IMG/VR virus record: IMGVR_UViG_3300048893_000042
Location: 1-64,000 of that record
DNA: 64,000 bases
Source: a virus
Taxonomy: Duplodnaviria; Caudoviricetes
Direction: 5' to 3' (one strand)
This document shows positions 45,662-63,400 of this stretch, in pieces. Positions within the stretch are counted from its first letter, which is position 1; every line of letters starts with the position of its first letter. The notes under the pieces were generated by a model. It was given only the letters and a program-made list of their open reading frames with translations. It was not told the origin of the DNA and made no database searches. The translations under genes were made by a program, and so were the position numbers.

Positions 45662-45781
45662 ACCCAGTTCTTCCCATTACTTGACCATGAATACTGAATA
45701 ACCCCAAGTTTCACTAGGAACCAAGGTCACCTGCACTACCCTGCATGAGTTTGTGCCACCGTGCTCCTCCGCCAGCGGAGG
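45662..45781 (+). repeat. 120-bp element A (inverted partner of 63281-63400)
   Basis: 90/120 ungapped identities to the reverse complement of 63281-63400 (hand count). Confidence 0.85.
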
Positions 45782-45803
45782 GGACGTATGATGGAGATCA
45801 CCC

Positions 45804-45965
45804 TTGAAGCGATTGCCTGAGGCAGTGTTCATCATCTGTGCCTTCGTCTACCTGGTGCTGACCGATGACGGCAGCAGCTGGTCGAGAGGCTACCTGTGGG
45901 GCAGCGCCCAGCCAACGCACAGGCCCCTGATCGTTGTCATTGCTGAACGTCTGGAGAGGAAGTGA
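45804..45965 (+). CDS. 53-aa membrane protein
   Basis: Manual translation MKRLPEAVFIICAFVYLVLT...; TTG start. Confidence 0.5.
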   Translation: MKRLPEAVFIICAFVYLVLTDDGSSWSRGYLWGSAQPTHRPLIVVIAERLERK

Positions 45966-46126
45966 TGCTGCGTGTCATTGTCCTGATCCTGCTGCTGCTC
46001 GTGCTGGCCGCACTCATCAATGAGGAGGGGCAGGTTGAGCTGTGTGCGAAGGCCACACTCATGACCTGGCGGCAGTGCTTCAATGATCGCCACCCGGCGC
46101 TCCGTGTCACCACACCAGAGGACTGA
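45965..46126 (+). CDS. 53-aa membrane/secreted protein
   Basis: MLRVIVLILLLLVLAALIN...; TGATG overlap. Confidence 0.55.
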   Translation: MLRVIVLILLLLVLAALINEEGQVELCAKATLMTWRQCFNDRHPALRVTTPED

Positions 46127-46132
46127 GACATC

Positions 46133-46378
46133 ATGAGGAAGGTCACACGATACCCCCTGCCGGCCACGGCGGGTCGCTTCACCATCGTCACGCCCGGGGG
46201 TGCCCAGTTCATCGGCATCACCGCCCAGAGCATCCACGCGCTCGCCGACACCAGCCGGCCTGAGGTACCACGCACCCTGCTGCTCGTGGACACGGAGCAG
46301 AACATCCCAGGCCGCAGCCGGCTGGCCCACATCGGCACCTCTGGAAATCGCCACCTGTTCGAGGAGAACCCAAGGTGA
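46133..46378 (+). CDS. hypothetical protein
   Basis: Tiled plus-strand ORF. Confidence 0.55.
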   Translation: MRKVTRYPLPATAGRFTIVTPGGAQFIGITAQSIHALADTSRPEVPRTLLLVDTEQNIPGRSRLAHIGTSGNRHLFEENPR

Positions 46379-46722
46379 GCATGCGCCCGATCAGCCCGCT
46401 GGACATCTCAGGGGACCAGCGCAGCACCGACCTGCCCGACCGGGTGATTGAGGTGTGGAACCGCCTGATCGCACAGAACCACAACGGCACCATGTCCACC
46501 GTGCTCCAGGTGGACGCGGTGGCCGCGATGCGTGACCTGGTGCCTCCTGACTTCCCGCGCTCGGCGGCAGCCTTCATGATCGAGCAGGGCTGGCTGGACA
46601 TCGAGCCGGTCTACCGCGCCCAGGGGTGGGAGGTCACCTACCACAAGCCTGCTGCCGAGGAGCACCCGGCGCGCTTCACGTTCTATGGCTCAGCGAGGAA
46701 GAAGCATGAAGAAGGCAGATGA
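46375..46722 (+). CDS. conserved phage hypothetical protein
   Basis: PDRVIEVWNRLI...GWLDIEPVYRAQGWEV.Y.KP. Confidence 0.7.
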   Translation: MSMRPISPLDISGDQRSTDLPDRVIEVWNRLIAQNHNGTMSTVLQVDAVAAMRDLVPPDFPRSAAAFMIEQGWLDIEPVYRAQGWEVTYHKPAAEEHPARFTFYGSARKKHEEGR

Positions 46723-47137
46723 TGACCTGAGGGCCATCTTCCACGAGCACCTGCACCAGGTCCACTGGCAGGCCATCGAGAGTGGCCTGACCGGCCTCGG
46801 AATCCCCGACAGCAACGGGTGCCTCCACCGTGAGTTCTGGGTGGAGCACAAGTGGACCCCCGAGTGGTGGGTGTCCCTGACCCCTGAGCAGGTGGGCTGG
46901 CACCTTCGCCGCTACCGGGCAGGTGGCCACACGTTCATCGCGGTGCGGCGCCACTGTGATGCGGGTCCACGCCGGCCCGCTGCCGATGACCTGTACCTCT
47001 TCCCCGGGCGGCTCGCCCGCGAGCTGAAGGACGTGGGCCTGCGGTTGGACGCACCTCCCCTGGTGATGTCCACCGGTGGGCCTGCGGCCTGGGACTGGTC
47101 TGCGGTGCTCGGTGTGCTGACCGGCAGGCCGGCATGA
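46706..47137 (+). CDS. PD-(D/E)XK nuclease, Holliday-junction resolvase/VRR-NUC-like
   Basis: GIPD...C...FWVEHK...LTPEQVGW..R..AGG..FIAV. Confidence 0.75.
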   Translation: MKKADDDLRAIFHEHLHQVHWQAIESGLTGLGIPDSNGCLHREFWVEHKWTPEWWVSLTPEQVGWHLRRYRAGGHTFIAVRRHCDAGPRRPAADDLYLFPGRLARELKDVGLRLDAPPLVMSTGGPAAWDWSAVLGVLTGRPA

Positions 47138-47358
47138 TTGACCTGCGGTCATCCCAGGTCGTGGTCCGCAGCCGCCAGACCATGGAGCCGGCCTTCGTGC
47201 TGCAGTTCTATGGCGTGCCATCGCTGGCCTTCATCGAGGTGCCGGACCGACGCGGCCATCGTCCGCCACAGACCGGCGGCAGGCTCATCCAGCAGGCCCT
47301 CCGTGAGCACGGCCTGCACCCGGATGACTGGATCGCCAGCATCTTTGAGTGCTATTGA
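47134..47358 (+). CDS. hypothetical protein
   Basis: ATGA overlap with the nuclease. Confidence 0.5.
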   Translation: MIDLRSSQVVVRSRQTMEPAFVLQFYGVPSLAFIEVPDRRGHRPPQTGGRLIQQALREHGLHPDDWIASIFECY

Positions 47359-47412
47359 CTTTGCCTCTGGCCGGGCACATGCTCGCCAGCACAGGAGCAG
47401 GGAGTGCATGTC

Positions 47413-47787
47413 ATGATGTTGCGAGCTAGCTGGCGCCATGCGGCCCCCTGCCTCCTCCTGCTGACCGCGAGCTGCGGCCCAGCCGGCCCACTGATCATCG
47501 CCGGCATCTCAGCCGCCAAGTCTGGGTATGACCTCGCGAAGGAGGTCAGCCAGGTCGTGGACCCGGTGATCGAGAAGGCCTGTGCGGTGTATGAGTCACG
47601 CAAGGCCACGGCGCTCGCCCGCATCGCGCTCGGTGCGGCCAGACCGGCGGCAGGCCCCCGCGTCATGGCCATGGTCCGCATGGCAGACGCCGCATGCGTG
47701 GCACCACCCCAGGGTGGTAGCCCACTGGAGACAGCCATGTGGGTGGTCGGGGTCGCCGGCCAGGTGGAGGCGGAGGCGCGGCCATGA
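47413..47787 (+). CDS. putative lipoprotein
   Basis: LLLLTASC lipobox-like motif. Confidence 0.6.
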   Translation: MMLRASWRHAAPCLLLLTASCGPAGPLIIAGISAAKSGYDLAKEVSQVVDPVIEKACAVYESRKATALARIALGAARPAAGPRVMAMVRMADAACVAPPQGGSPLETAMWVVGVAGQVEAEARP

Positions 47788-47984
47788 GGGTGCCCCTGAT
47801 CTGCCTCGTCTGGACCCTCTGGCTCATCGTGTGCATCTGGGGGTTCGAGGACATCGTCAAAGGTGACCCGAGCTATGACACCGCTGTCAAGAACGTCAAG
47901 TTCTGGGGTGGCCTGCTCGTGTTCACCTGCCCGATCTACATGGCCTGGTTCCTCACTGCCGCCATACTGAGGTGGGTGCCATGA
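47784..47984 (+). CDS. small two-TM membrane protein
   Basis: Hydrophobic segments; ATGA overlaps. Confidence 0.6.
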   Translation: MRVPLICLVWTLWLIVCIWGFEDIVKGDPSYDTAVKNVKFWGGLLVFTCPIYMAWFLTAAILRWVP

Positions 47985-48388
47985 CCTGGCAGGACATCAC
48001 TCTGATGGTTCTGAACGGGGTGTTCTGCGTGTCGCTGATGCCGACCATCTGGGGTGGCAGCAAGCCTCCACTCAGCACCAGCCTCACCACAGGCCCAGCC
48101 CTCATCACAGTGGCCGCCGTCTACACTACCCTGGGCCTGTGGGGTGCGGCAGCGGTCCAGCTCGCGGTCGGTGTGCAGTGGCTCATCCTCGCGTGGCAGC
48201 GCCACCAGATGCAGGATGAGCTGCAGCGCGCCCAGGTCTTCCTCGACATGTTCCCATGCTACCACTCGGTCCGCCGGGCCTCGTGCTGGTACTTCCAGCG
48301 TGGCAGGTGCCGCTGCCAGGACATCGTGGAGCACAACGCGCGCCAGGCCATAGACCGGGCACTGGTGTGGGATGAGAGCGATGCCTGA
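47981..48388 (+). CDS. membrane protein (three TM segments plus Cys-containing tail)
   Basis: WQD....N.VF.VSL.PTI...KPPL.TS pattern. Confidence 0.6.
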   Translation: MTWQDITLMVLNGVFCVSLMPTIWGGSKPPLSTSLTTGPALITVAAVYTTLGLWGAAAVQLAVGVQWLILAWQRHQMQDELQRAQVFLDMFPCYHSVRRASCWYFQRGRCRCQDIVEHNARQAIDRALVWDESDA

Positions 48389-48593
48389 GCGCTGTGAAGG
48401 CTGCCCAGACCCCATCCTGCCAGGCCAGGCCCGCTACACCGGTGGTGAGGGTGCTGACCCACCGAAGTACTGGCACTGGGAGTGCCATGAGCGCTTCCTC
48501 GCCGACTGCCGCAAGGCACTGCACGACATCCCGGGCCTCGCGGAAAGGGCCCAGCAGATCATCAGGAGGCTGCAGCATGGCAAGCGTGACTGA
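48372..48593 (+). CDS. small zinc-binding-like protein
   Basis: CEGC...HWEC. Confidence 0.55.
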   Translation: MRAMPERCEGCPDPILPGQARYTGGEGADPPKYWHWECHERFLADCRKALHDIPGLAERAQQIIRRLQHGKRD

Positions 48594-48837
48594 GGATGTG
48601 GCCAAGACCCGCTGGTGCCCATTCACCCGGGTCATCGCCGGCACACTGGATGGGAAGGGCGGCATGGACTGCAAGCCCCACCAGGCACCCTGGAACCGCA
48701 TCCAGACCGGTGGGGAGAACTTCAACCTGCCGACCGGCACCCAGTGCGTCGGCAGCCTCTGCATGGCCTGGAAGTGGATCAGCGACGGCGCGGACCCCAG
48801 CACCAAGCATGGTGACTGCCGGCTGATGACCAGATGA
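48577..48837 (+). CDS. conserved Cys-containing phage protein
   Basis: TEDVAKTRWCPF...CVGSLCMAW.W...G.C. Confidence 0.7.
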   Translation: MASVTEDVAKTRWCPFTRVIAGTLDGKGGMDCKPHQAPWNRIQTGGENFNLPTGTQCVGSLCMAWKWISDGADPSTKHGDCRLMTR

Positions 48838-49091
48838 GCCGCCCGCAGATCACGAAGGCCATGCGGTCTGCCCTGCTGTGGCTGCGACGCCGCAACGGTG
48901 ACGGTGGGTTCGACACCAATGGGGTGCTCGTGGCCGCCGGTGAGAAGGCTCCAGTGATGCGGGCCACCTGGAACCACCTGGTGGGAGCCGGCCTGGTGCG
49001 TGAGTACCAGGGCAGGAAGCGCCTGGGCGTCACCGAGGCTGGGTCCAGGTTTGACCTCACAGGGGTCACTGAGTCAGGAGACGAGTGTTGA
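48834..49091 (+). CDS. hypothetical protein (possible winged helix)
   Basis: ATGA overlap; TW..LV.AGLV....RL.VTEAG. Confidence 0.55.
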   Translation: MSRPQITKAMRSALLWLRRRNGDGGFDTNGVLVAAGEKAPVMRATWNHLVGAGLVREYQGRKRLGVTEAGSRFDLTGVTESGDEC

Positions 49092-50152
49092 CCCAGTCCG
49101 TCGTCTTCGTCACCCCAGGCCTGATCGACATCCGGGCCTTCACCACCTTCGGGGTCAACGCCAAGCCGCTCACCTCCAGCCCCATTGGCTTCTTCGGCAC
49201 CGGCCTGAAGTACGCCATCGCGGTGTTGGTGCGGGCGGGTGCCTCCCCGGTGCTGTGGATCGGTCGCGACAGGTACGAGTTCTCACAGCATGCCACCCAG
49301 TTCCGTGACCGCGAGTTCTCCATGGTGAGGATGCGGCGCCAGAGGTGGAACCTGCTGCGGGCCTCGAACCATGACCTGCCCTTCACCACCGAGCTGGGGA
49401 AGAACTGGAAGATGTGGATGGCCTACCGCGAGCTGGAGGCCAACACCCGGGACGAGGGTGGCGAGACACACGTGGTGGAGGGCACCTGGATGGACGTGGA
49501 CGGGGGGCACACGGTCCTCCAGGTCGCGAACGATGAGTTCGTCCAGGCACACCTCGACAGGGACCAGACGTTCCTGCCCGGAGGCCTCACTCTCCGTGAG
49601 GAGGACGCGAGGCTCCAGGTTCTGGACCGTCCTGCCAAGCACCTGTACTACCGTGGCCTCCGCGTGGCGGACCTGGAGAAGCCCACGCTCCACAGCTACA
49701 ACTTCCTGGGCGCGCTGGAGCTGACCGAGGACCGCACCCTCAAGTACGAGTTCCTGGCGCGCTCGGAGGTGGCCCGGCACATCGCGACGTGCCATGATGA
49801 GGCCCTGATCGAGGAGGTGCTGACCGCGCCCGACAGCCGGTGGGAGCATGGCCTGGACTTTGACTTCCAGCACGAGGCCCCGAGTGACGAGTTCTCGGCA
49901 GTCATCGAGCGGCGCAGGGGCATGGTGTCGAGGTCCGCCCTGAGGTACTACAGCGGCTGGGCCATGTCCACGGGTCGCGCACCCCCGGCGGGCACGTTCA
50001 CCCTCCACCCCAGGCCCTGGCGTGCGTCCGGCTCCTATGCCTTTGACGCCTCTGACCAGATGGTGCTGTCGGCCAGCGGCACGGCACCCCGGCCTGACCA
50101 GCTGATGACAGACGTTGTTGACGCGGTGAATGGAGCGGGTGATGGATCGTGA
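49085..50152 (+). CDS. GHKL-type ATPase, apparently circularly permuted
   Basis: IGFFGTGLKYA at aa 34-44 precedes the N-box-like RELEANTRDE at aa 115-124. Confidence 0.65.
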   Translation: MLTQSVVFVTPGLIDIRAFTTFGVNAKPLTSSPIGFFGTGLKYAIAVLVRAGASPVLWIGRDRYEFSQHATQFRDREFSMVRMRRQRWNLLRASNHDLPFTTELGKNWKMWMAYRELEANTRDEGGETHVVEGTWMDVDGGHTVLQVANDEFVQAHLDRDQTFLPGGLTLREEDARLQVLDRPAKHLYYRGLRVADLEKPTLHSYNFLGALELTEDRTLKYEFLARSEVARHIATCHDEALIEEVLTAPDSRWEHGLDFDFQHEAPSDEFSAVIERRRGMVSRSALRYYSGWAMSTGRAPPAGTFTLHPRPWRASGSYAFDASDQMVLSASGTAPRPDQLMTDVVDAVNGAGDGS

Positions 50153-50504
50153 GATGACTGAGTTCCTGGACGGCGTGGTGGGTGTCGTGGAGGCCAACTC
50201 GTTCGAGCAGCACATGCTCTGGAGTGAGAACCGGCAGCGCACCCACCCACGGACGTGGGAGCAGCTGAACCCGGGCCTCCTGGAGACGGTTGGCGTGCTT
50301 GACGGCAGGCCCGTGTGCGTCAGCCTCCACAAGGTCAGGGTTGGCGGTCACCTGATCCTGTTCGTGGATGCCACCAGTCAGGTCGTGGACCACGAGATGA
50401 TCGCGAGGTGGATGGCGGACACCATGCCAAGGTCGGCACTTCGAGAAAATGGCATCGTCAACCGCACCGACGCTATGAACTTCCACAACGTCTTTCCTCG
50501 TTGA
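50130..50504 (+). CDS. hypothetical protein
   Basis: Tiled ORF; exact start uncertain. Confidence 0.6.
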   Translation: MERVMDREMTEFLDGVVGVVEANSFEQHMLWSENRQRTHPRTWEQLNPGLLETVGVLDGRPVCVSLHKVRVGGHLILFVDATSQVVDHEMIARWMADTMPRSALRENGIVNRTDAMNFHNVFPR

Positions 50505-50529
50505 CCTTCGTCACCAGGCAGGGTAGAAG
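50501..50529 (+). promoter_or_regulatory. putative sigma70 promoter TTGACC-17-TAGAAG
   Basis: Exact 17-nt spacing; upstream of GGAGGA and ATG 50556. Confidence 0.5.
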
Positions 50530-50555
50530 GTGGGTGTCACCAACTGGAGGACACC

Positions 50556-50801
50556 ATGAGGGCCACCATCACCAGCAAGAACGACGAACTCCACCCCGAC
50601 ACCGCCGAGCAGATCGAACCCGGCGAGGAGGTGCTGTACTACAAGGACTACAAGAAGTCAGGCGAGGATGACATACTGCTCACCCGCAAGGCGAACGGGG
50701 CCATCGAACTCTGGGTCAACGGGTGCGTCGTCTACAGCGAGGCGGGTGACGCAGAACTCACCGAGGCGGAGCGCCAGAGGAACGGCGCGGCCCACCACTA
50801 G
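50556..50801 (+). CDS. hypothetical protein
   Basis: RBS GGAGG; last plus-strand gene before the convergence point. Confidence 0.6.
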   Translation: MRATITSKNDELHPDTAEQIEPGEEVLYYKDYKKSGEDDILLTRKANGAIELWVNGCVVYSEAGDAELTEAERQRNGAAHH

Positions 50802-50916
50802 GTCGCCGCGCCAGCTGCCGCCTCAGGGCCTCTACCCTCGCCCGGTTGCGGTCCAGGATCGCCCGGGCCAGCGCCCTGACGGCAGCTCGCCGCTCGGCAC
50901 AGCCGGCACAGCTCAC
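50758..50916 (-). CDS. small hypothetical protein
   Basis: MSCAGCAERR...; GTGA overlap. Confidence 0.45.
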   Translation of the reverse strand: MSCAGCAERRAAVRALARAILDRNRARVEALRRQLARRPSGGPRRSSGAPPR

Positions 50917-51068
50917 CGGCTGCCCAGCAGCAGGAGGATGAGCAGGATCACAACCACCAGGCCCACCCCGCCGCCACCCCAGTGGCGGTAGGGCACCCCC
51001 GTGTAGTAGCCCCCACCGACCCCACCAAGCAGCACCACTATCAGAATCACAATCAGAACTGTCGTCAC
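50913..51068 (-). CDS. DUF3309-like small membrane protein
   Basis: VLIVILIVVLLGG....Y..W.GGGVGLVVVILLILLLLG. Confidence 0.6.
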   Translation of the reverse strand: MTTVLIVILIVVLLGGVGGGYYTGVPYRHWGGGGVGLVVVILLILLLLGSR

Positions 51069-51253
51069 CACGTCCTCCTCTGGTACTCGCGGTTGTCTCG
51101 CAGGGCAGCCTCGATCTGCTCCACCGTGCCGAGGCTCCATGGGCTGTCAGGATGGGGTGCGGCCTGGAGGCCCTGTCTGACATTCTCCAGTTCCTGAGCA
51201 GTCAGGTGGACCACAAACCCACACACGTTGTCACGATCTGGGTATATCTTCAA
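51065..51253 (-). CDS. hypothetical protein
   Basis: Tiled ORF. Confidence 0.5.
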   Translation of the reverse strand: MKIYPDRDNVCGFVVHLTAQELENVRQGLQAAPHPDSPWSLGTVEQIEAALRDNREYQRRTW

Positions 51254-51297
51254 AGGCCTGCTCCCGTGCCGCTCCGCATGGCGGTCCTCCGTCGTGC

Positions 51298-51344
51298 ACT
51301 ACCCTGCATCACACCCCTGAACTCGTGGCTCCTCCGTGGGGAGC
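51298..51344 (-). repeat. dispersed intergenic motif, copy 2
   Basis: Plus strand ACTACCCTGCA-TCACACC-CCTGAACTCG-TGGCTCC-TCCGTGG-GGAGC. Confidence 0.75.
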
Positions 51345-51355
51345 GCTGCACACTA

Positions 51356-51388
51356 CTCAGCCCCTCCCGCTGGGCGGAAGGGGCTGAG
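51356..51388 (-). terminator. 10-bp hairpin downstream of the 51409 stop
   Basis: CTCAGCCCCT-13-AGGGGCTGAG; no clear U-tract. Confidence 0.4.
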
Positions 51389-51408
51389 GGGTCGTGGCGC
51401 CGATCCTT

Positions 51409-51951
51409 TTACGCGGCGGGTTCGGGCTGTGCCGTGGTCTCCGGGTTCTGCAGGTCCAGGCCGATGGCGCGTGCCGTGTGGTCGGTGGAGATGTCCACCA
51501 GCCCGTCGAAGACCGTCAGCCCGGCGCTGTCCTTGACCTCGAACGCGAGGCCCGTGGCCTCGCGGACCAGGGGCTGCATCTCCACCGCCGGCGAACCATC
51601 GGCCATCGTGCTGACGGAGACGGTCCAGCTGGTGGTGTCGGGGCTGCTGACGGTGAACGTGTCGCCGGTCGGTGCCGACACGACGTTGCCGTCCGCGTCC
51701 TTTGCCAGGATGCGGTACTTGGTGACCTCGGTGTTTTTGAGTGCGATGTTGGTCAAGAGTGTTCCTCCTTCGGTGCAGCGCTCGGGCACCTCCAGCCAGA
51801 GGCTGGTGGGCTCCGAGCACCCGGGCTCAATGTTCGTGAGGTAATCCTCGATGCGCTGCAGCTCCACCAGTATGGACTGGAGCATGCGGCGGCGGACCCA
51901 GCGGCTCATCCGCTCCCAGCTGGGCCGAAGCGGGTGCGTCTCAGGCAGCAT
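51409..51951 (-). CDS. protein with C-terminal Ig-like beta domain; nested in-frame TTG start at 51756
   Basis: Two RBS-preceded starts (GGGAGG-ATG 51951; GGAGGA-TTG 51756); alternating hydrophobic beta pattern. Confidence 0.6.
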   Translation of the reverse strand: MLPETHPLRPSWERMSRWVRRRMLQSILVELQRIEDYLTNIEPGCSEPTSLWLEVPERCTEGGTLLTNIALKNTEVTKYRILAKDADGNVVSAPTGDTFTVSSPDTTSWTVSVSTMADGSPAVEMQPLVREATGLAFEVKDSAGLTVFDGLVDISTDHTARAIGLDLQNPETTAQPEPAA

Positions 51952-52198
51952 GGCTCGCCCTCCCAAACCCAATGACGTCATCCAGGGTCAGTTCGGGTCC
52001 CTGGTCCTCAGGCCGCACCTTCCAGCCCTCGACTACAATGACATCGGGTGCGAACGGGGTGACCCGGAAGAATGTGGCACCCAGGCGTTCCAGCTCGTGC
52101 GACATGTCGCGCACTGCTGCCGTGCAGCTCTGGGCGTCCACACCTAGGACGCGGTGGGACACCCAGTCAGCTGGCTGGGGCACCGGGCGGACGCCCAT
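51941..52198 (-). CDS. hypothetical protein
   Basis: Tiled ORF; EGWKVRP.DQG motif. Confidence 0.5.
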   Translation of the reverse strand: MGVRPVPQPADWVSHRVLGVDAQSCTAAVRDMSHELERLGATFFRVTPFAPDVIVVEGWKVRPEDQGPELTLDDVIGFGRASHAA

Positions 52199-52352
52199 TG
52201 GGGAAGCTCACCGGTGGCCCACCCTGCGGCTGCATTGGGGTGGTGGACTGGGAGGGCGTTCCCACGGCATAGGACCGTGGTGCCGGCTGCAGAGTGTCCG
52301 CACGCTTGGATGGCGCCGCTGGCTGGTGGGTGATCGTGCTCATGGAACTCAT
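52167..52352 (-). CDS. Pro-rich small hypothetical protein
   Basis: RBS GAGGAG before ATG 52352. Confidence 0.45.
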   Translation of the reverse strand: MSSMSTITHQPAAPSKRADTLQPAPRSYAVGTPSQSTTPMQPQGGPPVSFPNGRPPGAPAS

Positions 52353-52375
52353 GTTGATCTCCTCTGGTAAAAAGG

Positions 52376-52906: not shown

Positions 52907-53067
52907 TGAGCTGTCTCTCCTGTGATGGCGCGCAGCCTGTCGATCTCCTCCAGCAGCGCGTCGATGTGGGCCTCGGTCCACCCATCTCCATAGGTGGCCT
53001 CACCCCGCTGCTGGCGATCCTTCGCCTCCCTGCGCCTCTGGCGAACCTCTTCCACCATGTCGGTCAC
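52903..53067 (-). CDS. hypothetical protein
   Basis: IDALLEEIDRLR; GTGA overlap. Confidence 0.5.
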   Translation of the reverse strand: MTDMVEEVRQRRREAKDRQQRGEATYGDGWTEAHIDALLEEIDRLRAITGETAQ

Positions 53068-55735: not shown

Positions 55736-55907
55736 GATGCCGCACCGGTGCCATGGAGATGAGTGTGTGGTCATCCTTGGCCAGCCTCACCTCGCAGTCC
55801 TCGTACTGGGTCATGACGCGGTCAAGACCCCTGGCAGCGTCGTCAGTGCTGTGGAACTCGGCCACGTACTTCACCACGCCGTCCTTCTGTGCTGTGATCG
55901 TCACCAT
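55728..55907 (-). CDS. 59-aa hypothetical protein
   Basis: Manual translation MVTITAQKDGVVKYVAEF...; RBS GGAG. Confidence 0.5.
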   Translation of the reverse strand: MVTITAQKDGVVKYVAEFHSTDDAARGLDRVMTQYEDCEVRLAKDDHTLISMAPVRHHE

Positions 55908-55951
55908 GTTGGCTCACTCCTCCAGGTCCGGTGCCGCCGTCCGCGCTCGGG

Positions 55952-56013
55952 AGGGTCCAGCTGTACTACCCTACAGCTGGACCCTGAACCCGTGGCTCCT
56001 GCGACACCGGAGC
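55952..56013 (-). repeat. dispersed intergenic motif, copy 3, with a perfect 14-bp stem
   Basis: AGGGTCCAGCTGTA-CTACCC-TACAGCTGGACCCT (55952-55985), then GCTCC-9-GGAGC (55995-56013). Confidence 0.8.
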
Positions 56014-56031
56014 AGGTCAGTTTTCTGAGGC

Positions 56032-57120
56032 TCAGGCTGCCTTGGCCAGGACCTCCCACTCGGTCTTCGGGAGCTCGATCAACCGGCCACCGAACTGCTC
56101 GAACTGCGAGGCCCGGTCATAGTTGTCGAGGTCTTCCGCCGTCCGGGTGATCGCGTTCATCAGACCGTACTGGGTCAGGTCGCCCCCACGCACCAGGTGG
56201 TGCAGGATGCTGCCGCGCTCAGTGTCGGTCATGTCGAACTTCTTGGCCGTGACCTCCACCACCTGCACCGGGTCGCCAGTGATCTGGTTCTTCGCGGTCG
56301 CGGCGATCTTGTCCACCGTGGCCTCGAACTGGGCCTCCTGGAAGGCACCCTGAACCACGTCACCGATCTGGGCCCACAGGGCCGCATCGGTCAGCCTGCG
56401 GGTGTTGTCAGTCAGCAGCCGATAGGTGTCCTCACCGACCTGCTCGCGCCCGCCCAGGTGCATGGTGCGCTTCGAACGCTCGCTGATCACGAGCAGGTTG
56501 GTGCACCCCCCGGTGTAGATGCTTGTGTGGACCGCCAGGGCGCCATAGCCCACCTCGCTGTTTGACAGCACCAGGGCGGGGGACACGGTGTCGAAGCGGT
56601 GGTGGCCCTCACCCAGGCTGACCCCGGTGGGAAGGTCGCGCTTGATGCGGCTGTCCACCACCTTGAGGTACAGCTTGGTCTCCGTCACCTCGCAGCTCAG
56701 CACCTCCACGCCCAGCCGCAGCAGCGGTGGGAGCGCCGCCTCCATGAGCTGGTCGTTGTCCAGTGCCCGGAAGGCGTTGGACAGGAAGGCCCGTGCGGTG
56801 CCGGCAGTGCCGTCGTTGAAGGTCCGGATCATCCTGGTGTCCGCCTTCTTGTGGAGCCAGGTGTTGATGTTGGAGGCCAGCAGGTCGGGTGCTTCGGCGG
56901 CCATCCGATCATAGTAGGCCTTCGGCACCTTGGTGTACTCGCTGAGCTGCCCGTGGATCACGCCGGTGGTCTGCAGGTCCACGGGCAGGCCGCGCACGGT
57001 GAGGTGCCGCCCGTCCTGCTCCATGACGATGTTCCGGGTGTCGGCGAGGTAGTCATGCTTGAGGTCACGCTGGCGCTCAATCTCCTTGGCCAGGTCGGTC
57101 AGTGTGCGTCCGATCTTCAT
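56032..57120 (-). CDS. DUF932-family protein
   Basis: TLTDLAKEIERQ..KHDY, ARAFLSNAFR.LDN, NSEVGYG.L, CTNL, LMNAIT..A. Confidence 0.75.
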   Translation of the reverse strand: MKIGRTLTDLAKEIERQRDLKHDYLADTRNIVMEQDGRHLTVRGLPVDLQTTGVIHGQLSEYTKVPKAYYDRMAAEAPDLLASNINTWLHKKADTRMIRTFNDGTAGTARAFLSNAFRALDNDQLMEAALPPLLRLGVEVLSCEVTETKLYLKVVDSRIKRDLPTGVSLGEGHHRFDTVSPALVLSNSEVGYGALAVHTSIYTGGCTNLLVISERSKRTMHLGGREQVGEDTYRLLTDNTRRLTDAALWAQIGDVVQGAFQEAQFEATVDKIAATAKNQITGDPVQVVEVTAKKFDMTDTERGSILHHLVRGGDLTQYGLMNAITRTAEDLDNYDRASQFEQFGGRLIELPKTEWEVLAKAA

Positions 57121-57154
57121 CTCAGTTCCTCCAATGCAGCGGGTGTGCTGCCAC

Positions 57155-57181
57155 CTGCCCTCGCTGTGCGCGCGAGGGCAG
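57155..57181 (-). terminator. 10-bp hairpin between genes
   Basis: CTGCCCTCGC-7-GCGAGGGCAG. Confidence 0.4.
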
Positions 57182-57193
57182 AGGGCAGGGCAC

Positions 57194-57532
57194 TCAGCCT
57201 TGCTTCTTCGCTTCGATCCACCACCCCAGCAGGGGCAAGGGCTTGTTGTCAGGGTCGGTCAGGTCGTCCTCCAGGTGGACTTTGTCACCAGCTAGGGCAC
57301 GCATGACGGCCATGGACAGGCGGCTGGACCGTTCGAGCAGGGCCAGCTCAACCGGGTCCGTGGTCTCCGCCCTCGCGGCCTCAACCGCCGCGAGGTAGCG
57401 CGTGTTCTCGTCGCCCGTCGCCCAGAGGGTCTGGACGTGGGTGAAGGCCTTCTTGACCCGCTCTTCGAGGGTTGTCGCACCGGCGCAGGCCGGGCGGGTG
57501 TCCACCACCGCGATGCTCATGATGTTGCTCAC
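57194..57532 (-). CDS. hypothetical protein
   Basis: GTGA overlap; the track ORF over-extends upstream. Confidence 0.55.
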   Translation of the reverse strand: MSNIMSIAVVDTRPACAGATTLEERVKKAFTHVQTLWATGDENTRYLAAVEAARAETTDPVELALLERSSRLSMAVMRALAGDKVHLEDDLTDPDNKPLPLLGWWIEAKKQG

Positions 57533-57783
57533 TGTCCTATCCTCCGTTGCCCCAGTTGGGAAGGCAAGCGCCCAAGGCCCACTGCCCTCGCGGCGTCCTC
57601 GATGGTGGAGGTCACGGGTGGGTTGCCCGGGGTCGGTGCGACCACCGCACCTGTGCCCCAACGGTTGTAGCTCTGGACGCAGCCAGCGGGCACCACCTCC
57701 CCCACTGGATAGTAGCTCTTGCATGGTGCCTGTGCCAGGGCTGGCAGTGCCAGCAAGCACAGGGCCGCAGCGATCCTCATCAT
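57529..57783 (-). CDS. small secreted protein
   Basis: Signal peptide MMRIAAALCLLALPALAQA. Confidence 0.6.
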   Translation of the reverse strand: MMRIAAALCLLALPALAQAPCKSYYPVGEVVPAGCVQSYNRWGTGAVVAPTPGNPPVTSTIEDAARAVGLGRLPSQLGQRRIGQ

Positions 57784-57786
57784 GAC

Positions 57787-58680
57787 TCACATCCCCATCT
57801 CTTCAAGCATGTTGTCGAAGGTATCGAGGTCCTCAGCCTCGCGGGCCAGGGCCTTGTTCCAGGCGTCTGGGTCCCGCAGCCGACCCACTGCTGTGCTGAT
57901 CAGCTCGCGGATGGTGCGCGGGTCCAGGGCATCGAGCTCCCACGATTCGTCGCCGAACTCCTCCTGGTAGGCCTGGAACCGGCTGTCGCTGTGCTTGGCC
58001 GGGTCGGGCGGCAGGTTGTGCTGTTCCACCTGGTCCTTGTTGAGGGCCAGCCGCTGGACGGCCACGGGCACGCCGCAGAAGACCTGCAGCCGCTCGCGGT
58101 TGTCGCGGGTCATGTCCAGGCCGCTCGGGTCGTGGTCACCGAGGTGGAGCACAATGGGCCGCTGGCCCCGCTGGTAGTACCCAGCGAAGCGCTGGCCGGC
58201 TCGCCACTGCTCGCTCTGTGAGTTGTAGCCCCGGCACGAGAAGAAGTCCACCCTCAGCTCGTTGCAGATGCCGGCGATCACACCCGACAGGGCCTCCTTC
58301 TCGATCCAGACCTCAGGCCGCATCGGCTGACCCTCCCACAGGTCGCGACGGTATCCCGCCTTGGCCTCGCGGATGGCCTCCCCCGGGTGACGGTAGGTCC
58401 GCAGGCCCATCAGGTTGCGGGTGCGGTCCTCGATGCCGTCCCAGGGCAGCAGGCCCGCCATGCGGCCGTCGCTCACCGCGTTGCCGATGCGGTTGTAGCT
58501 GCTCATCGTGTTCGGTAGCACCTTGCGCTGCACGAACTGGTAGTACAGCTGGCGCAGCGTGAGCACCAGGTTCTGCTGCCGGTACTCGGCCATGATGGAG
58601 CCGGCGACACGCACCAGCTCCAGGGTTCCCGCCGACAGCTTCTTGTCGCTGTAGCGGATCAGTGTGCCTTCGTTGCTCAC
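57787..58680 (-). CDS. Topoisomerase VI subunit A/Spo11-like (5Y-CAP plus TOPRIM) protein
   Basis: LTLRQLYYQ (catalytic Tyr-like), EVWIEKEAL, RGY.S, LGDHDPSGLDM, WELDAL. Confidence 0.75.
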   Translation of the reverse strand: MSNEGTLIRYSDKKLSAGTLELVRVAGSIMAEYRQQNLVLTLRQLYYQFVQRKVLPNTMSSYNRIGNAVSDGRMAGLLPWDGIEDRTRNLMGLRTYRHPGEAIREAKAGYRRDLWEGQPMRPEVWIEKEALSGVIAGICNELRVDFFSCRGYNSQSEQWRAGQRFAGYYQRGQRPIVLHLGDHDPSGLDMTRDNRERLQVFCGVPVAVQRLALNKDQVEQHNLPPDPAKHSDSRFQAYQEEFGDESWELDALDPRTIRELISTAVGRLRDPDAWNKALAREAEDLDTFDNMLEEMGM

Positions 58681-58925
58681 CTGACCTGACTCCTCTTCCT
58701 GAGCACCGGCGGCAGCACCACCGCCCGTGCGGCGATCTGCCGCCGGGGTTCGGTGCTGCACCGGTCTGGAAACTTCTTCACCCTGACGGGCAGTGGGAAC
58801 TTGTAGCGTGCGATCTTGACGGGGGGCAGGTCGCGCGCCACCTCCAGGGCACGCTGCCTGGTTGGCCACTCAGACACCGTCTCCCAGTCCCCCGGTGCGA
58901 AGCCGAGCTGGATGCGATATGTCAC
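58677..58925 (-). CDS. hypothetical protein
   Basis: GTGA overlaps. Confidence 0.5.
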   Translation of the reverse strand: MTYRIQLGFAPGDWETVSEWPTRQRALEVARDLPPVKIARYKFPLPVRVKKFPDRCSTEPRRQIAARAVVLPPVLRKRSQVR

Positions 58926-59893
58926 CGTCCAATCCTCCTCACTGCCTGGCCGCCGCCGACCTGGCCATCCAGGCTGATGCGGCTGCCCACGTCGCTGCCC
59001 GCCCGGTAGGCGGAGCGGTCGATGCTGTCGTCACTGCGGCGGCCACCGCCACGGTTGTAGCGCCAGCCGTTCGTCTTCCACCACCGCTCGTCCGCCTCCT
59101 TGCGCTGACGCTCCTGCTCGGCAGCCTCCTCAGGGTGCTCGGAAGCCCAGCGTGTGTGGGCCTCGCGCTCCAGCCGGCGTTGCTCAGCGAACCTGGCTCT
59201 CTGGGCACGCTGCTCGGCACTCCATCCCTCGCCATAGAGGAAGTCGTTGTTGGCATCCTCCTCCAGCTGCTGGACATCGGCGATGGTCAGGGCGCGCGAC
59301 GTGGATGCGCCGGTCGTGTCCACCTGCCGGGCCTCGGCAAGCTTCTGCTGCCGGCGCTCGGCCAGGCGTTCGACCAGCCTGTCGGCCATGCCAGCCCGGA
59401 AGGACATCGCCCAGTTCGAGTACCGCAGGTTGTTGTTCCACTCCTGGAGGCCTGAGATGGCCTCAACCATCGCCCGCTCGACAGCCTCCTCCAGGTAGAA
59501 GGCCATGTGCTGGGTGGCGGTCGTGTTGACCACCCTGCCGACCAGCCGGTGTCGCTTCTGCTTGAGGCGCTTCTCACGGGTGCCACCCCAGTCGCGGTCT
59601 GCGACCGTCTTCCACTCGGTGACGTCCTGGGTCCAGTACATGCAGAAGTGCAGCTCGGCCACTGAGCGCCAGAGCTGGCGCTGCCACTTGTAGAAGCCGC
59701 CACGCACCCGCGCATCCTCGCGCTTGCCGTCCTGGCCGCTGTTCCGTTCGACCTCAGCCGTGGTCAGGTTCCACTCGTCCATCAGCTCCTGGGCCTTGGC
59801 CGCTGCCACTGATGCTTCGTTCTCGTTCGGGCTGTCCGCCAGGTTCAGCAGCTTCTGTATCCTCGCCAGTATCGTGTCAGGTGCGTCAGCCAT
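58922..59893 (-). CDS. DUF2786-domain protein
   Basis: ILARIQKLLNLADSPNENEASVAAAKAQELM..WNL. Confidence 0.8.
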   Translation of the reverse strand: MADAPDTILARIQKLLNLADSPNENEASVAAAKAQELMDEWNLTTAEVERNSGQDGKREDARVRGGFYKWQRQLWRSVAELHFCMYWTQDVTEWKTVADRDWGGTREKRLKQKRHRLVGRVVNTTATQHMAFYLEEAVERAMVEAISGLQEWNNNLRYSNWAMSFRAGMADRLVERLAERRQQKLAEARQVDTTGASTSRALTIADVQQLEEDANNDFLYGEGWSAEQRAQRARFAEQRRLEREAHTRWASEHPEEAAEQERQRKEADERWWKTNGWRYNRGGGRRSDDSIDRSAYRAGSDVGSRISLDGQVGGGQAVRRIGR

Positions 59894-59953
59894 GGTTCAC
59901 TCCTCCAAGCAAAGTGGACGGCGGCACAGGCCACCGTCCACGGGGCAGGTCAG

Positions 59954-60364
59954 TCAGGCAGCAGCATCGTCCATGGCGCTGTCCGCCTCGTCAATGGCGT
60001 CCAGCACCTCGCCGATGGTGTCCTCGAAGCCATCGGCCAGGGGGTCGATGTCGTTGAGGGCATCGCGGGCCTCGCCGATCTTCTCGGCAGCCGTTTCCAG
60101 GTTGTCCGCAGCCTGCTGAGCGTTCTCGCCGCGTTCGCTGCCCTGGAGCGCTTCGGGCATGTTGTCGTAGTATTCCTGCTCCTCGTCCTTGAGGCTGTCC
60201 ACCTCGCTGGCGATGTTGTCGAGGCCCGCGTCACCGAGTTCGTCCACGGCAGCCTTCAGGGCCTCGCCCTCCAGCTCACCGTCCCGGATGGCCTCGATGG
60301 CGGCCTTGGCCTCGCCCAGCGCCTTCTGCTGGGCCGCGATGTCCTTCCTGCGCTTCTGGTTCAT
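59954..60364 (-). CDS. acidic helical conserved phage protein
   Basis: MNQKRRK...DEEQEYYDNMPE.LQGSERGE. Confidence 0.75.
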   Translation of the reverse strand: MNQKRRKDIAAQQKALGEAKAAIEAIRDGELEGEALKAAVDELGDAGLDNIASEVDSLKDEEQEYYDNMPEALQGSERGENAQQAADNLETAAEKIGEARDALNDIDPLADGFEDTIGEVLDAIDEADSAMDDAAA

Positions 60365-60431
60365 GTCACTCTCCTGCAGCGTGAGTGCTGCCCACTGCCC
60401 ACCTCACGGATGGGCAGACGGCACCGCTCAC

Positions 60432-60683
60432 CTAGTCGTTGATGATCAGCAGGCCTGCGATGATGTTGCGGGCCTCGCTCCTGTAACGCCAGCCAGCCAC
60501 ATCCTCGCCACTGGCGTCCATCTCCACGTGGCTGTAGGTGAAGTGGTGCTCAGCGCCGCTGGCGGCACGCACCACCACCTCATCCGGCGGGAACTCCACG
60601 GCACAGATGCCCAGGTCACTGGCCTCGGCAACGTACCATCCCTCAGAGGTGAGGGTGAACTGGTCTGCGCGGTACTCAGCCAT
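60432..60683 (-). CDS. hypothetical protein
   Basis: EASDLG...EDVAGWRY...LLIIND. Confidence 0.65.
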   Translation of the reverse strand: MAEYRADQFTLTSEGWYVAEASDLGICAVEFPPDEVVVRAASGAEHHFTYSHVEMDASGEDVAGWRYRSEARNIIAGLLIIND

Positions 60684-61146
60684 GCATCATCTCCCAGCAG
60701 TCGGGTCCGATCCCCCGGTCAATGCTCTCCGGGTGGGTCAGCTCGCGGCCACATCGGCCGCAGTGGTTGTGGTGCCTGACCTCCAGGCAAGGGGCCAGCT
60801 CACCGCCCTCCAGGTGTTCCCAGAAGTAGGTCCAGGCCCGCACCGCGAAGCTGGAGGCGGTCAGCCGGCTGGACTTCGTGAGGCGGAATCGGGGGAACAG
60901 GTCACCATCCATCACACCCATGTAGGTGTACTGGTCTCCATCGGTCAGCACCTTGACGAACCAGCGGTCCTGCGGCTCACCCGCGTCGTCGGTGGCCCGG
61001 TCCACCCGGTAGGTGTAGTGTGAGCCGGTGCGCTGGCTGCGCAGCGTCAGGGTGGCGTGCCCGGCGAGGGCATACTGCCGCACCTCGCCGGGGTCGGTCA
61101 TGAGGTGGCCGTCGATCCGCTCGGCCAGTTCCGTCAGTGCTCCCAT
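60676..61146 (-). CDS. DUF6011-like protein (OB-like fold plus zinc ribbon)
   Basis: TLTLRSQRTG.HYTYRV; CGRCGRELTHPESIDRGIGPDC. Confidence 0.75.
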   Translation of the reverse strand: MGALTELAERIDGHLMTDPGEVRQYALAGHATLTLRSQRTGSHYTYRVDRATDDAGEPQDRWFVKVLTDGDQYTYMGVMDGDLFPRFRLTKSSRLTASSFAVRAWTYFWEHLEGGELAPCLEVRHHNHCGRCGRELTHPESIDRGIGPDCWEMMHG

Positions 61147-61156
61147 CTGGGCCTCC

Positions 61157-61381
61157 TCAGCTCAGCACAACGGCGGTCTGCCGTTCGTCGCGGTCACCAT
61201 CCTCAGGGTCCGTGACCTTGGGCATGCGGTGGTACGCACTCCAGACCACCTGCTGCACCTCAACCTGCTCTACCTTGGGGGCCACGGTCGTGTGCCAGTG
61301 GTCACCGTAGTTGTAGCTGAAGTGGACCTCAGCATCCGGGTCCATCAGGCCCAGCTCTTCGATCAGCTCACTTACCTTCAT
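61157..61381 (-). CDS. hypothetical protein
   Basis: MKVSELIEEL...DPDAEV. Confidence 0.65.
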   Translation of the reverse strand: MKVSELIEELGLMDPDAEVHFSYNYGDHWHTTVAPKVEQVEVQQVVWSAYHRMPKVTDPEDGDRDERQTAVVLS

Positions 61382-61449
61382 GTCATCCTCCGTTCTCAGC
61401 TCAGTGCTGACCGCTGGACCGGCGTGCCGGCCCAGACGTCAGAACTCAG

Positions 61450-61578
61450 TCAGTCGTCATCGTGCTCTCTGTTCGACAGTGTGCGAACGAACACGCTGAC
61501 GAACCCACAGCTGGTGGAGTAGCACCGGAAGAGGAACCGATGCCCCCACTCATTCTCGGTGGTGAGGTAGTAGCTCAT
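61450..61578 (-). CDS. 42-aa hypothetical protein
   Basis: Manual translation; ATGA overlap. Confidence 0.4.
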   Translation of the reverse strand: MSYYLTTENEWGHRFLFRCYSTSCGFVSVFVRTLSNREHDDD

Positions 61579-61790
61579 GCCGCATCCTCCTGGTGGCAGT
61601 CCACGAACACGTCCACCCAGTCGCGGGCTTCGAGGATGTTGTCACCCTGCCAGCCCATGCTCATGTCGTGGAGGTGGACGAAGACCGCCAGCCCACCGAA
61701 GCGGGTCAGGGTCGCAATGATCAGGAAGCCTGACCGCTCCTCGCGGTGGACCTGCCGGACCAGCTTCACGTCGTGGGTCATCGTCAGCAC
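61575..61790 (-). CDS. hypothetical protein
   Basis: Tiled ORF. Confidence 0.55.
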   Translation of the reverse strand: MLTMTHDVKLVRQVHREERSGFLIIATLTRFGGLAVFVHLHDMSMGWQGDNILEARDWVDVFVDCHQEDAA

Positions 61791-61993
61791 TCCTCAATGA
61801 TGTCGTGGACCGCATCGAGTGCGGTGTGGAAGGGCAGTTCCATCAGGGTGGATCGCACCCACTGCCATGCGCTGCTGAGCGGGTCGTGCCCGTTCACCAG
61901 CCGGCTCCTGAAGTAGTCCACCTGGACCCCGTGTCGGTCTTCGGTGACCACCGCGCGGCGCTTGCCGTCACTCGACAGGATCGTGATGCTCAT
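61784..61993 (-). CDS. hypothetical protein
   Basis: ATG 61993 after GGAG. Confidence 0.55.
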   Translation of the reverse strand: MSITILSSDGKRRAVVTEDRHGVQVDYFRSRLVNGHDPLSSAWQWVRSTLMELPFHTALDAVHDIIEEC

Positions 61994-62105
61994 TGTTCCG
62001 CTCCTGCAGTCGGGTGAAGAAGCCTGGGTGCTCAACCGCAGCCAGGTCGGCATCCGTGCGCTCGCGCACCCGGTCCGCCTCGATCAGCTTGTCAATTGGG
62101 TTCAT
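61968..62105 (-). CDS. 45-aa hypothetical protein
   Basis: RBS AAGGAGG before ATG 62105. Confidence 0.5.
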   Translation of the reverse strand: MNPIDKLIEADRVRERTDADLAAVEHPGFFTRLQERNNEHHDPVE

Positions 62106-62343
62106 CGCTCGCCTCCTTGTAGTCGGGTTCGATGTTGACCTCCTCGCGGGCCCAGGTCCACTCGGCCATGTGACCCTCGGCATCGAACCGCATCTCGTGG
62201 AGCTGGTGGCTGCTTGGGTCGAAGAGCAGCACCGTCACACCGTCGTCCAGGTGGCAGATCAGGGTGCCCGGCTCTGCGCCCGCGAAGGCGTACCAGTCCT
62301 GCCGGGTCATCTCGTGGAACTCGTGTCCAAGAACCTTCATCAC
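62092..62343 (-). CDS. hypothetical protein
   Basis: MTRQDWYAFAGAEPG. Confidence 0.6.
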   Translation of the reverse strand: MMKVLGHEFHEMTRQDWYAFAGAEPGTLICHLDDGVTVLLFDPSSHQLHEMRFDAEGHMAEWTWAREEVNIEPDYKEASDEPN

Positions 62344-62522
62344 TTCCTCCACGCTGGGTGCGCTTCGCTGAGGCACCAGGTCGGCACCCCGGGTCTCATA
62401 TCAACCAGGGCCCAGAAGGCCTTCGCCGCTTCGGCCTGGTCGTCATAGTCGCGGCTGACCTTGGTCAGCGTCTGGGTGAGCGCTGACTGCTGTCCGCGCT
62501 GACCTTCGATTGCCCACTTCAT
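62340..62522 (-). CDS. hypothetical protein
   Basis: ATGA overlap. Confidence 0.5.
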   Translation of the reverse strand: MKWAIEGQRGQQSALTQTLTKVSRDYDDQAEAAKAFWALVDMRPGVPTWCLSEAHPAWRK

Positions 62523-62677
62523 TGCTTCACCTCGATCACGGTGATGTTCGGCTTGTTCTGGTCCCGATGGGTGTACATCCGGCTGCGTCCATCATAGAAG
62601 GACACAACGTAGCCCTCAGACCGCAGTTCCTGGTCTGTCTTGACCAGGTCGGTGGTTTCGATCCGCTTGGTTCTCAC
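62519..62677 (-). CDS. hypothetical protein, first gene after the structured leader
   Basis: RBS AAGGAG before GTG 62677. Confidence 0.55.
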   Translation of the reverse strand: MRTKRIETTDLVKTDQELRSEGYVVSFYDGRSRMYTHRDQNKPNITVIEVKQ

Positions 62678-62703
62678 GGTGCTCTCCTTGGTTGGCTTGC
62701 CGC

Positions 62704-62990
62704 AGCGCCGGTGGCCGGCGCTCGGGCAAGACAACGAGGCCCGCCGGGTGGCGGGCCTGTCGTCTTATATCTCAGTTGTCATCCCCGGCTGGGCCGGGCT
62801 GCGCCGGGATCGACCCGGTTGCGCGGTAGACGGGGTGTGACCCGTGGCCCCACTTTTGGAGGGTGGCGGCCTGGCGCTCGCATAACCCGTTATCCGCAGC
62901 CCGTTAGTACGGGGGGCCACTTCGTGGCGGGTGGGGGTTTTAGCTTTGCGGTGAATTCCGCCAGCGCTCCGGTTCCAGGCCGGTTCAACG
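62704..62990 (-). ncRNA. candidate structured RNA leader / small RNA
   Basis: About nine adjacent hairpins between a promoter-like sequence and the first RBS. Confidence 0.45.
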
Positions 62991-62996
62991 AAGCGG

Positions 62997-63025
62997 ACCA
63001 TACCCGGGTGGTTGATGAAGGTCAA
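62997..63025 (-). promoter_or_regulatory. sigma70 promoter TTGACC-17-TATGGT
   Basis: GGTCAA 63020-63025 and ACCATA 62997-63002 on plus; shares TTGACCTTCRTCA with the 50501 promoter. Confidence 0.6.
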
Positions 63026-63064
63026 CCTCGAAGTTGAGGTTTCCTCACCCAATCAGTTTGATTT

Positions 63065-63301
63065 TTATCCATCACCAGCGTCGTCCTCCCGCGAGCTATC
63101 TCCCGCGAAGGAGGCCCGCTCCAGCTGCTCGGCGACACGCCGGAGCTCGGCGGACCACTCCACCAGATGGCGCCGGGTGACGTGCCGCTTGACGATGGCG
63201 AGGCTCATGGCACCCACGACACGGGCCACCCTGCGGTGCCACCCTTCGACCTGCGATCCGAGGCCTTGGCTCAAAGAGTGCCTCCGGTGCCGGAGGAGCA
63301 A
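63065..63301 (-). CDS. possible hypothetical protein
   Basis: TTG start lies inside element B; weak support. Confidence 0.3.
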   Translation of the reverse strand: MLLRHRRHSLSQGLGSQVEGWHRRVARVVGAMSLAIVKRHVTRRHLVEWSAELRRVAEQLERASFAGDSSREDDAGDG

Positions 63302-63400
63302 AGTTCCATCAGATGATGCACTATCCTGCAGGTGAAGTTGGTTCCCTGTAATACTTGGGGTTATTCAGTAATGACCCTCAAGTAATGGGAAGCACTGGTG
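63281..63400 (-). repeat. 120-bp element B (inverted partner of 45662-45781)
   Basis: Conserved blocks TCCCATTACTTGA, TACTGAATAACCCCAAGT, GGAACCAA, CACCTGCA, TGCAT and TGCTCCTCCG-4-CGGAGG. Confidence 0.85.

Follow-up and report, generated by a model that had tools for sequence, protein, structure and literature searches.

What are the two near-copies of one non-coding sequence that face each other across 17.5 kb of an uncultured soil phage genome? They lie at 45662-45781 and 63281-63400 of the window analysed here, a stretch of 64,000 nucleotides (nt) that makes up the first 64 kb of the 77,381-bp IMG/VR virus record IMGVR_UViG_3300048893_000042. We consider it somewhat probable that these twins are parts of two paralogous promoter-operator-leader cassettes of about 225 bp, which arose by duplication and are internal to the gene arrays in which they stand.

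The pair itself is beyond the background of this genome. As stated in a preliminary description of the window, 45662-45781 and the reverse complement of 63281-63400 align without gaps at 90 of 120 positions; all other 120-nt windows of the genome gave 30.5 ± 4.7 identities, with a best value of 53, and the twins stand about 12 standard deviations above this level. The longest identical runs between them are 18, 15, 10, 9 and 8 nt, and a repeat search of the genome recovered the pair as 118 nt at 76% (BLAST E 4.6e-20). The repeat is therefore real, but the 120-bp element first described is only part of it: both entire intergenic spacers align (45556-45830 with 63502-63240), and the homology of about 225 bp fades outward without sharp ends. 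Moreover, only the two cassettes and a region at 40.3-41.1 kb are spacers of 52% guanine-cytosine (GC) content in a genome of about 64% GC, and these three share the rare 8-mers GGAACCAA, CATTACTT and TCACCTGC. The left copy is located 3' of an exonuclease gene and an open reading frame (ORF) of 85 amino acids, the right copy is located 3' of the gene for a family A DNA polymerase (PolA), and a run of small ORFs lies downstream of each.

45562..45803, + strand: left cassette, the whole spacer from the 85-amino-acid ORF (45304-45561) to the first small ORF; GC 0.52.
63275..63495, - strand: right cassette, the whole spacer from the PolA stop (63496) to the TTG at 63274; GC 0.52.

Within the cassettes, the conserved blocks are set apart by spacers that vary in sequence but not in length, in agreement with the preliminary description. 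The blocks are as follows.

45595..45605, - strand: YACTTGR box m2, which reads ATTACTTGAGG on the - strand and forms an inverted repeat with box m3.
45636..45646, + strand: YACTTGR box m3, CACTTGGGGAT; its equivalent in the right copy is 63415-63425 (-).
45670..45684, + strand: box A, CTTCCCATTACTTGA, invariant, including a -35-like CTTGA; right copy 63378-63392 (-).
45692..45709, + strand: box B, TACTGAATAACCCCAAGT, 18 nt, invariant, including the sigma32-like CCCCAAGT; right copy 63353-63370 (-).
45717..45735, + strand: box C, GGAACCAA-N2-TCACCTGCA (also written GGAACCAA-N2-TCACC); right copy 63327-63345 (-).
45732..45745, + strand: core palindrome of the left copy ("hairpin 1"), TGCA-CTACCC-TGCA, with a -10-like TACCCT at 45737-45742.
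63317..63330, - strand: core palindrome of the right copy, TGCA-GGATAG-TGCA, TGCACTATCCTGCA on the + strand, with a -10-like GATAGT at 63320-63325 (-).
45766..45781, + strand: hairpin 2 of the left copy, CCTCCG-CCAG-CGGAGG, the GGAGG of its 3' arm lying 6 nt ahead of the ATG at 45788; -15.8 kcal/mol, z -3.2.
63281..63296, - strand: hairpin 2 of the right copy, CCTCCG-GCAC-CGGAGG, GGAGG lying 6 nt ahead of the TTG at 63274; -9.9 kcal/mol, z -2.3.

Boxes A and B are separated by 7 variable nt, the core palindrome and hairpin 2 by about 20. Of the ten YACTTGR boxes that lie between genes in this genome, nine are found within the two cassettes. The spacing CTTGA-N17-CCCCAAGT, already pointed out, occurs in both copies. 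Extended by the T that follows it, the core yields a hexamer at the same position of each cassette, TACCCT in the left copy and GATAGT in the right, and each of these has the A and the T required of a -10 element.

From this layout a working order can be proposed. Each cassette, standing after a replication gene, would restart transcription into its run of small ORFs. It would open with the inverted YACTTGR pair right after the upstream stop codon; CTTGA of box A and CCCCAAGT of box B would serve as a -35/-10-like pair with a putative protein site in the spacer, and the core palindrome would supply a second -10-like hexamer. Because the conserved boxes exceed what RNA polymerase needs and a canonical sigma70 pair is missing, we infer that initiation would require either an alternative sigma or a factor made by the phage. 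The GC hairpin 2 would then hide the Shine-Dalgarno (SD) sequence of the next ORF. In both copies CGGAGG lies within a stable stem 6 nt before the start; since the 3' arm is itself the SD sequence GGAGG, translation of the next ORF should need the hairpin to open. A role of hairpin 2 as an SD-masking leader hairpin is thus supported by its sequence and fold, and its regulatory effect is predicted. The inverted placement of the two cassettes would be secondary, having come with an inversion of the whole + strand array.

A duplicated promoter-type element fits the two sites because the spacers are AT-rich, because each lies between a replication gene and small ORFs, because relatives have a promoter after PolA, and because phage YuA offers a precedent. 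To this extent the earlier proposal of duplicated promoters fits the context. That they are master early promoters, each at the head of an array, is wrong, as both copies are internal: the + strand array starts at about 41.1 kb, and the - strand array begins at 77.3 kb and extends beyond the right copy.

As for the relatives, a sigma70-type promoter, TTGACY-N17-TAnnnY, is found no more than about 250 nt past the PolA stop in at least eight distinct contigs whose PolA proteins are 43-63% identical. In most of them the -10 element overlaps or adjoins a palindrome of the CTAC..TAG type, and several also have a leader hairpin. In two related genomes (G005 and G004), many spacers have such a promoter, with an extended CCACTTGACY -35 element and in the direction of the genes, and some of these promoters are paralogous pairs that share conserved blocks. 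The dispersed family that they make up, CCACTTGACY-N17-TAnnnY plus CTACSSGTAG, is present in both genomes (L060-L064), where CTACSSSTAG has 11 and 9 matches, respectively, against 1 and 3 for a control pattern; judged by its sequence, CTACSSGTAG looks like an operator for a dimeric regulator. The genome studied here contains only one canonical copy of the relatives' palindrome, at 41103-41166, where ACTACCCGTAG lies 13 nt past TTGCCT-17-TAGGCT, a good promoter of the sigma70 type.

The precedent comes from the YuA record, in which four 28-bp repeats, CTTTACTTCTTCGGA-N6-CACTATA, are annotated as "putative sigma70 promoter requiring phage-encoded cofactor". Nine YuA transcription starts determined by ONT-cappable-seq share the repeat motif, unlike bacterial promoters (PMC10914365), and the repeats have no activity without the phage factor. 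The likeness to a sigma32-type promoter that had been suggested for the twins is real as well. Both copies carry CTTGAC/G-N16-CCCCAAGT, matching the sigma32 (RpoH) consensus CTTGAA-N13-17-CCCCATNT, as quoted in PMC4263515, at 5/6 and 7/8 positions with a spacing within range. The pattern occurs three times in the genome against 0.2 expected, the twins counting as one independent case. However, ten further spacer bases are invariant here, which sigma32 does not require. A sigma32-type promoter is possible, and CCCCAAGT is a candidate -10 element alongside the core hexamer.

Several observations weigh against the promoter cassettes. No sigma70-type hexamer pair was found at the scan thresholds in 45300-46000 or 63000-63700, and the best such pair by eye in the cassettes is TTGACC-N17-CCAAGT. 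Each cassette offers two competing -10 candidates, CCCCAAGT and the core hexamer. The nearest PolA among viral and metagenome contigs and 5.8 billion proteins is 66% identical (one distant match carries the name Mesyanzhinovviridae); with no relative above this value in the collections, the cassette itself is without comparative support. The small ORFs beside the cassettes gave no regulator in Pfam and PHROG, and no match to a phage sigma factor was found in the record. The record also gave no match to a single-subunit RNA polymerase, in a search without positive control by which absence is not shown. Finally, the core of the right copy and three further copies of a module described below (M11, M51 and M55) are antisense to the local genes and oppose local transcription, which a pure promoter reading leaves unexplained.

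The cassettes were also searched for elsewhere. No nearly identical contig turned up. The twin alignment, used with nhmmer on 17 PolA relatives, found nothing, and neither the cassette against cultured phages nor the bracketed block against plasmids had a match by BLAST. The exact 17-mer of box B has 7 matches in IMG/VR, all in unrelated low-GC DNA and about the number due to chance; a gapped pattern of the module has 6, all of them chance or coding.

The antisense copies lead to the alternative that survives best. The final 55 nt of each twin are part of a dispersed module with five copies, for which an nhmmer profile was built from the left copy and the following three.

11553..11606, + strand: module copy M11, core CACAACCCTACA, GGCTCC/GGAGCC hairpin; nhmmer E 7e-11.
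51293..51348, + strand: module copy M51, core TGCACTACCCTGCA, spacer and GCTCC/GGAGC hairpin, between - strand genes; nhmmer E 3e-12.
55959..56015, + strand: module copy M55, core in the loop of a 14-bp stem (55952-55985), fold z about -4; nhmmer E 4e-13.

Each of the three is a + strand copy within - strand territory and may be an antisense promoter, a small RNA gene or a signal at the DNA level; a tRNA/attP identity was rejected, as no tRNA was found. The profile recovers its four source copies on the + strand and splits the right copy, with spacer and hairpin 2 on the - strand and the core on the + strand. Hence only the 6-nt centre of the right copy is re-oriented inside an otherwise inverted cassette: the reverse complement of its GGATAG is CTATCC, which equals the left loop CTACCC at 5/6 bases on the + strand, and the flipped loop noticed earlier is thereby confirmed. 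This is the sole unusual and unexplained detail of the locus, a hint that the core may be read as a DNA strand and not as a transcript.

Accordingly worded, the alternative is that the core TGCA-CTAYCC-TGCA is a strand-specific DNA signal, either a nick of the T5/phiKMV/tf kind or a priming or origin site, in the cassettes and three other spacers, with which a promoter function may coexist. All five module cores lie on the + strand regardless of local gene direction, and a random loop would fall within one mismatch with a chance of about 0.005. TGCA-N6-TGCA occurs just three times in 77 kb, with a CTAYCC centre every time, and the 11-mer CACTACCCTGC occurs three times in the genome against 0.03 expected. 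In phage tf and its relatives, as in T5 and phiKMV, nicks are defined by short consensus sites limited to one strand of the virion DNA (PMC3517423). Nevertheless, five sites on the same strand have by themselves a p of about 0.06, and intergenic CTAYCC is counted 11 times against 2, the + strand being C-rich. The third exact CACTACCCTGC is on the - strand, at 77263-77273 of the genome (L013:17263-17273), on the sense strand of a coding region. Furthermore, no nickase was identified, and the related palindromes of the relatives track promoter direction instead of one strand. We therefore regard a strand signal as unlikely. There is a similarly small chance that selection holds the 14-bp core on one strand of the virion genome, even inside the oppositely oriented cassette, as a candidate nick or priming/origin mark; if so, a phage whose thymidine is hypermodified would have one-strand marks in the style of T5 and tf tied to its promoter spacers.

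It is very doubtful that the hairpins work as RNA, whether as put/nut-like antiterminators or as leader processing or stability signals. The two palindromes are at a constant distance in both copies, and hairpin 2 is present in 5/5 module copies with differing pairing registers (CCTCCG/CGGAGG or GCTCC/GGAGC). The two hairpins reported earlier, TGCA-N6-TGCA and CCTCCG-N4-CGGAGG, do occur in both twins; however, the first is thermodynamically marginal. Hairpin 1 folds at -3.4 and -3.6 kcal/mol with z of -0.3 and -0.4, which is the level of shuffled sequences, and the right leader does not form it at minimum energy; the whole leaders are unremarkable (z -0.7 and +1.0). Its loop differs in the RNA sense, CUACCC on the left and GGAUAG on the right, no covariation exists between the twins, and Rfam gave no match at the gathering threshold and no meaningful one at E 1. 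Because hairpin 1 is at shuffle level and has no Rfam match, a put-like two-stem RNA, as had been suggested, is unsupported. A scan of 39.5-59 kb for terminator-like sites gave no more than two, a number below that in shuffles; they lie at about 54.5 kb on the + strand, and no sense-strand terminator was predicted downstream of either cassette.

Equally doubtful is the view that the twins are recombination substrates which invert the 17.5-kb block, by a site-specific switch or a homologous flip-flop. The following genes and frames adjoin the cassettes.

44330..45307, + strand: RNase T-type 3'-5' exonuclease gene (PHROG 192, E 1.8e-40; PF00929), upstream of the left cassette.
45788..45965, + strand: first frames after the left cassette, a 10-codon ORF (45788-45820) overlapping a membrane-like ORF of 53 amino acids (TTG 45804-45965).
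63065..63274, - strand: first ORF after the right cassette, 69 amino acids, starting with TTG at 63274; its homologue adjoins the exonuclease gene in L018.
63496-65679, - strand: PolA gene (63496..64000 in the window, the 3' part; PHROG 17, E 5e-87; PF00476), upstream of the right cassette.

Proofreading exonuclease and PolA polymerase are encoded separately in this genome, by genes that lie on opposite strands with 18 kb between them. The gene map, drawn from codon-position GC, places the + strand array at 41114-50801 and the - strand array at 51409-77335, and the two converge as first reported. An ORF of 75 amino acids with a long hydrophobic stretch, at 50913-51140 (-), places their meeting point at about 50.8-50.9 kb. 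A strong 15-bp imperfect palindrome at 51356-51388 (CTCAGCCCCTCCCGC...GCGGAAGGGGCTGAG), directly past the stop of g51409, is probably a terminator close to this point.

An inverted repeat does bracket the block, and flipping it would keep every gene co-directional with its flank and would put g46685 and g49085 right after PolA, as in L033, L022, L026 and L023. On the other hand, the record contains no resolvase or tyrosine recombinase (PF00239 and PF00589 had no match; controls matched), the twins are only 76% identical with a longest identical run of 18 bp, and their homology over about 225 bp fades outward without sharp ends. The lone asymmetric core has the same polarity in both copies (45732 and 63317), and being in direct orientation it would lead a site-specific enzyme to delete, not invert. 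The invertible block of the preliminary description is therefore left without positive support.

The synteny points in another direction. In L022, L023, L026, L033 and YuA, the genes that correspond to g41114, the exonuclease, g46685 and g49085 are found downstream of PolA and co-directional with it, and the same is true of homologues of g62092 and g60676 in L034, L031 and L027, in which the present order PolA, g62092, g60676 is also found. The bracketed block, with several genes whose homologues adjoin PolA in relatives, is thus not purely accessory, contrary to what had been assumed. For the cassette itself, the comparison with relatives that had been proposed as a check yielded no orthologous copy, the nearest PolA being 66% identical. 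Since the whole + strand array (41.1-50.8 kb, left cassette included) is inverted with respect to the unidirectional relatives, the twins were probably once direct repeats. A single 41.1-50.8 kb inversion would explain the gene order better than a flip of the 17.5-kb block; no inverted repeats were found at its proposed ends, 41.1 and 50.8 kb.

We give little credence to the cassettes as replication origins or iteron arrays beside replication genes. They are AT-rich, lie next to the genes for the exonuclease and PolA, and contain 4-6 repeats of the YACTTGR box, some in either orientation; however, no initiator gene was identified, the layout of SD sequence, hairpin and start is typical of a gene leader, and relatives have plain promoters at this place. 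Least of all can the twins be taken for inverted repeats at the ends of an inserted mobile element of 17.7 kb, a highly improbable idea in which the 118-bp inverted repeat around the block is set against the lack of sharp ends, of a target duplication and of any transposase or recombinase found, against block genes syntenic with PolA in relatives, and against the failure to find an empty-site relative (45.66 joined to 63.40 kb).

Apart from the cassettes, some features of the record deserve mention. It is classed as linear, with a completeness of 100% by CheckV estimate. The region 657-40271 is mostly on the - strand and holds the structural genes, including both terminases.

37670-39691: large terminase, within the mostly - strand block.
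39675-40271: small terminase, within the same block.

From the small terminase to the + strand array runs a divergent non-coding region of 842 bp at 40272-41113, of 52% GC and rich in short repeats (TGAGTATT, CAATAACC and CTACCC), which probably serves as the chief control region of the genome and may include the genome ends. In the structural module, two long stretches have poor coding signal, 11085-11990 and 25000-25504, and may be additional control regions; an inverted repeat ACTTGAA-N26-TTCAAGT begins at 11936. The right end and the first 1.6 kb of the record carry an M6/YuA-type gene set, namely a ribonucleotide reductase, a thymidylate-synthase-like enzyme, an amino acid:DNA transferase, a radical-SAM enzyme and kinases. 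This thymidine hypermodification set spans L013:8022-17335 and window positions 1-1646, and its splitting by the record ends suggests that the record is circularly permuted.

If the promoter-cassette reading is true, it describes how transcription is organised within the 77-kb genome of an uncultured phage that is distant kin of Mesyanzhinovviridae. There would be three control regions rich in AT, of which two are paralogous and each mask the first ORF downstream from translation. Such knowledge would help to annotate the blocks of small ORFs in this phage and to place them in time. Such blocks are where anti-defence genes tend to occur. The mechanism would be ordinary and of a known kind, the re-oriented core excepted.

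The locus can finally be compared with known systems. In Mu (G/Gin), P1 (C/Cin) and Salmonella (H/Hin), inverted repeats likewise bracket a gene block; here, however, there is no invertase, the repeats are whole regulatory spacers and not crossover sites of 26-34 bp, and the boundary splits no gene. Paired copies after oppositely oriented promoters and leader stem-loops are also known from lambda nutL/nutR and HK022 putL/putR, from which the present twins differ in that stem 1 is marginal, the RNA-sense loop is not conserved, and neither a family match nor downstream terminators were found. The nick sites of T5, phiKMV and tf have a consensus limited to one strand, to which the core, on the + strand in 5/5 module copies, may be likened, but the nick consensuses TACTRTGMC and CGAC-N5-CCTACTCCGG differ from it, and the core is known from the assembly only, with one 11-mer on the opposite strand.

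With YuA, the likeness is one of kind and of the -10 region, not of alignment-level homology. Conserved repeats lie in intergenic spacers of both phages, and both have the M6-type replication and thymidine-hypermodification gene set. The YuA -10 region CACTATACT resembles CACTAYCCT here: its block CAC-TA-NN-CT, compared as CACTATACT and CACTAGACT, is present as CACTACCCT in the left copy and M51, as TACTACCCT in M55 and as CACTATCCT on the + strand of the right copy, M11 being one base off (CACAACCCT). However, YuA has the block CTTTACTTCTTCGGA 17 nt upstream of the -10 element, of which only TTACTT is shared here, about 55 nt from the core, and its repeats all point with the genes, whereas here the left copy alone is sense.

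The promoter and CTACSSGTAG cassettes of the relatives (L031, L034, L016/G004, L017/G005 and L047) have a clear TTGACY-N17-TAnnnY and a true 10-bp palindrome, whereas the cassettes here are without canonical hexamers and have TGCA arms in place of GTAG. They are alike in their site just after PolA, in a CACTTGA-type upstream box, in ACTACCC at or after the -10 element and in a leader hairpin, as well as in their occurrence in several spacers, some as paralogous pairs.

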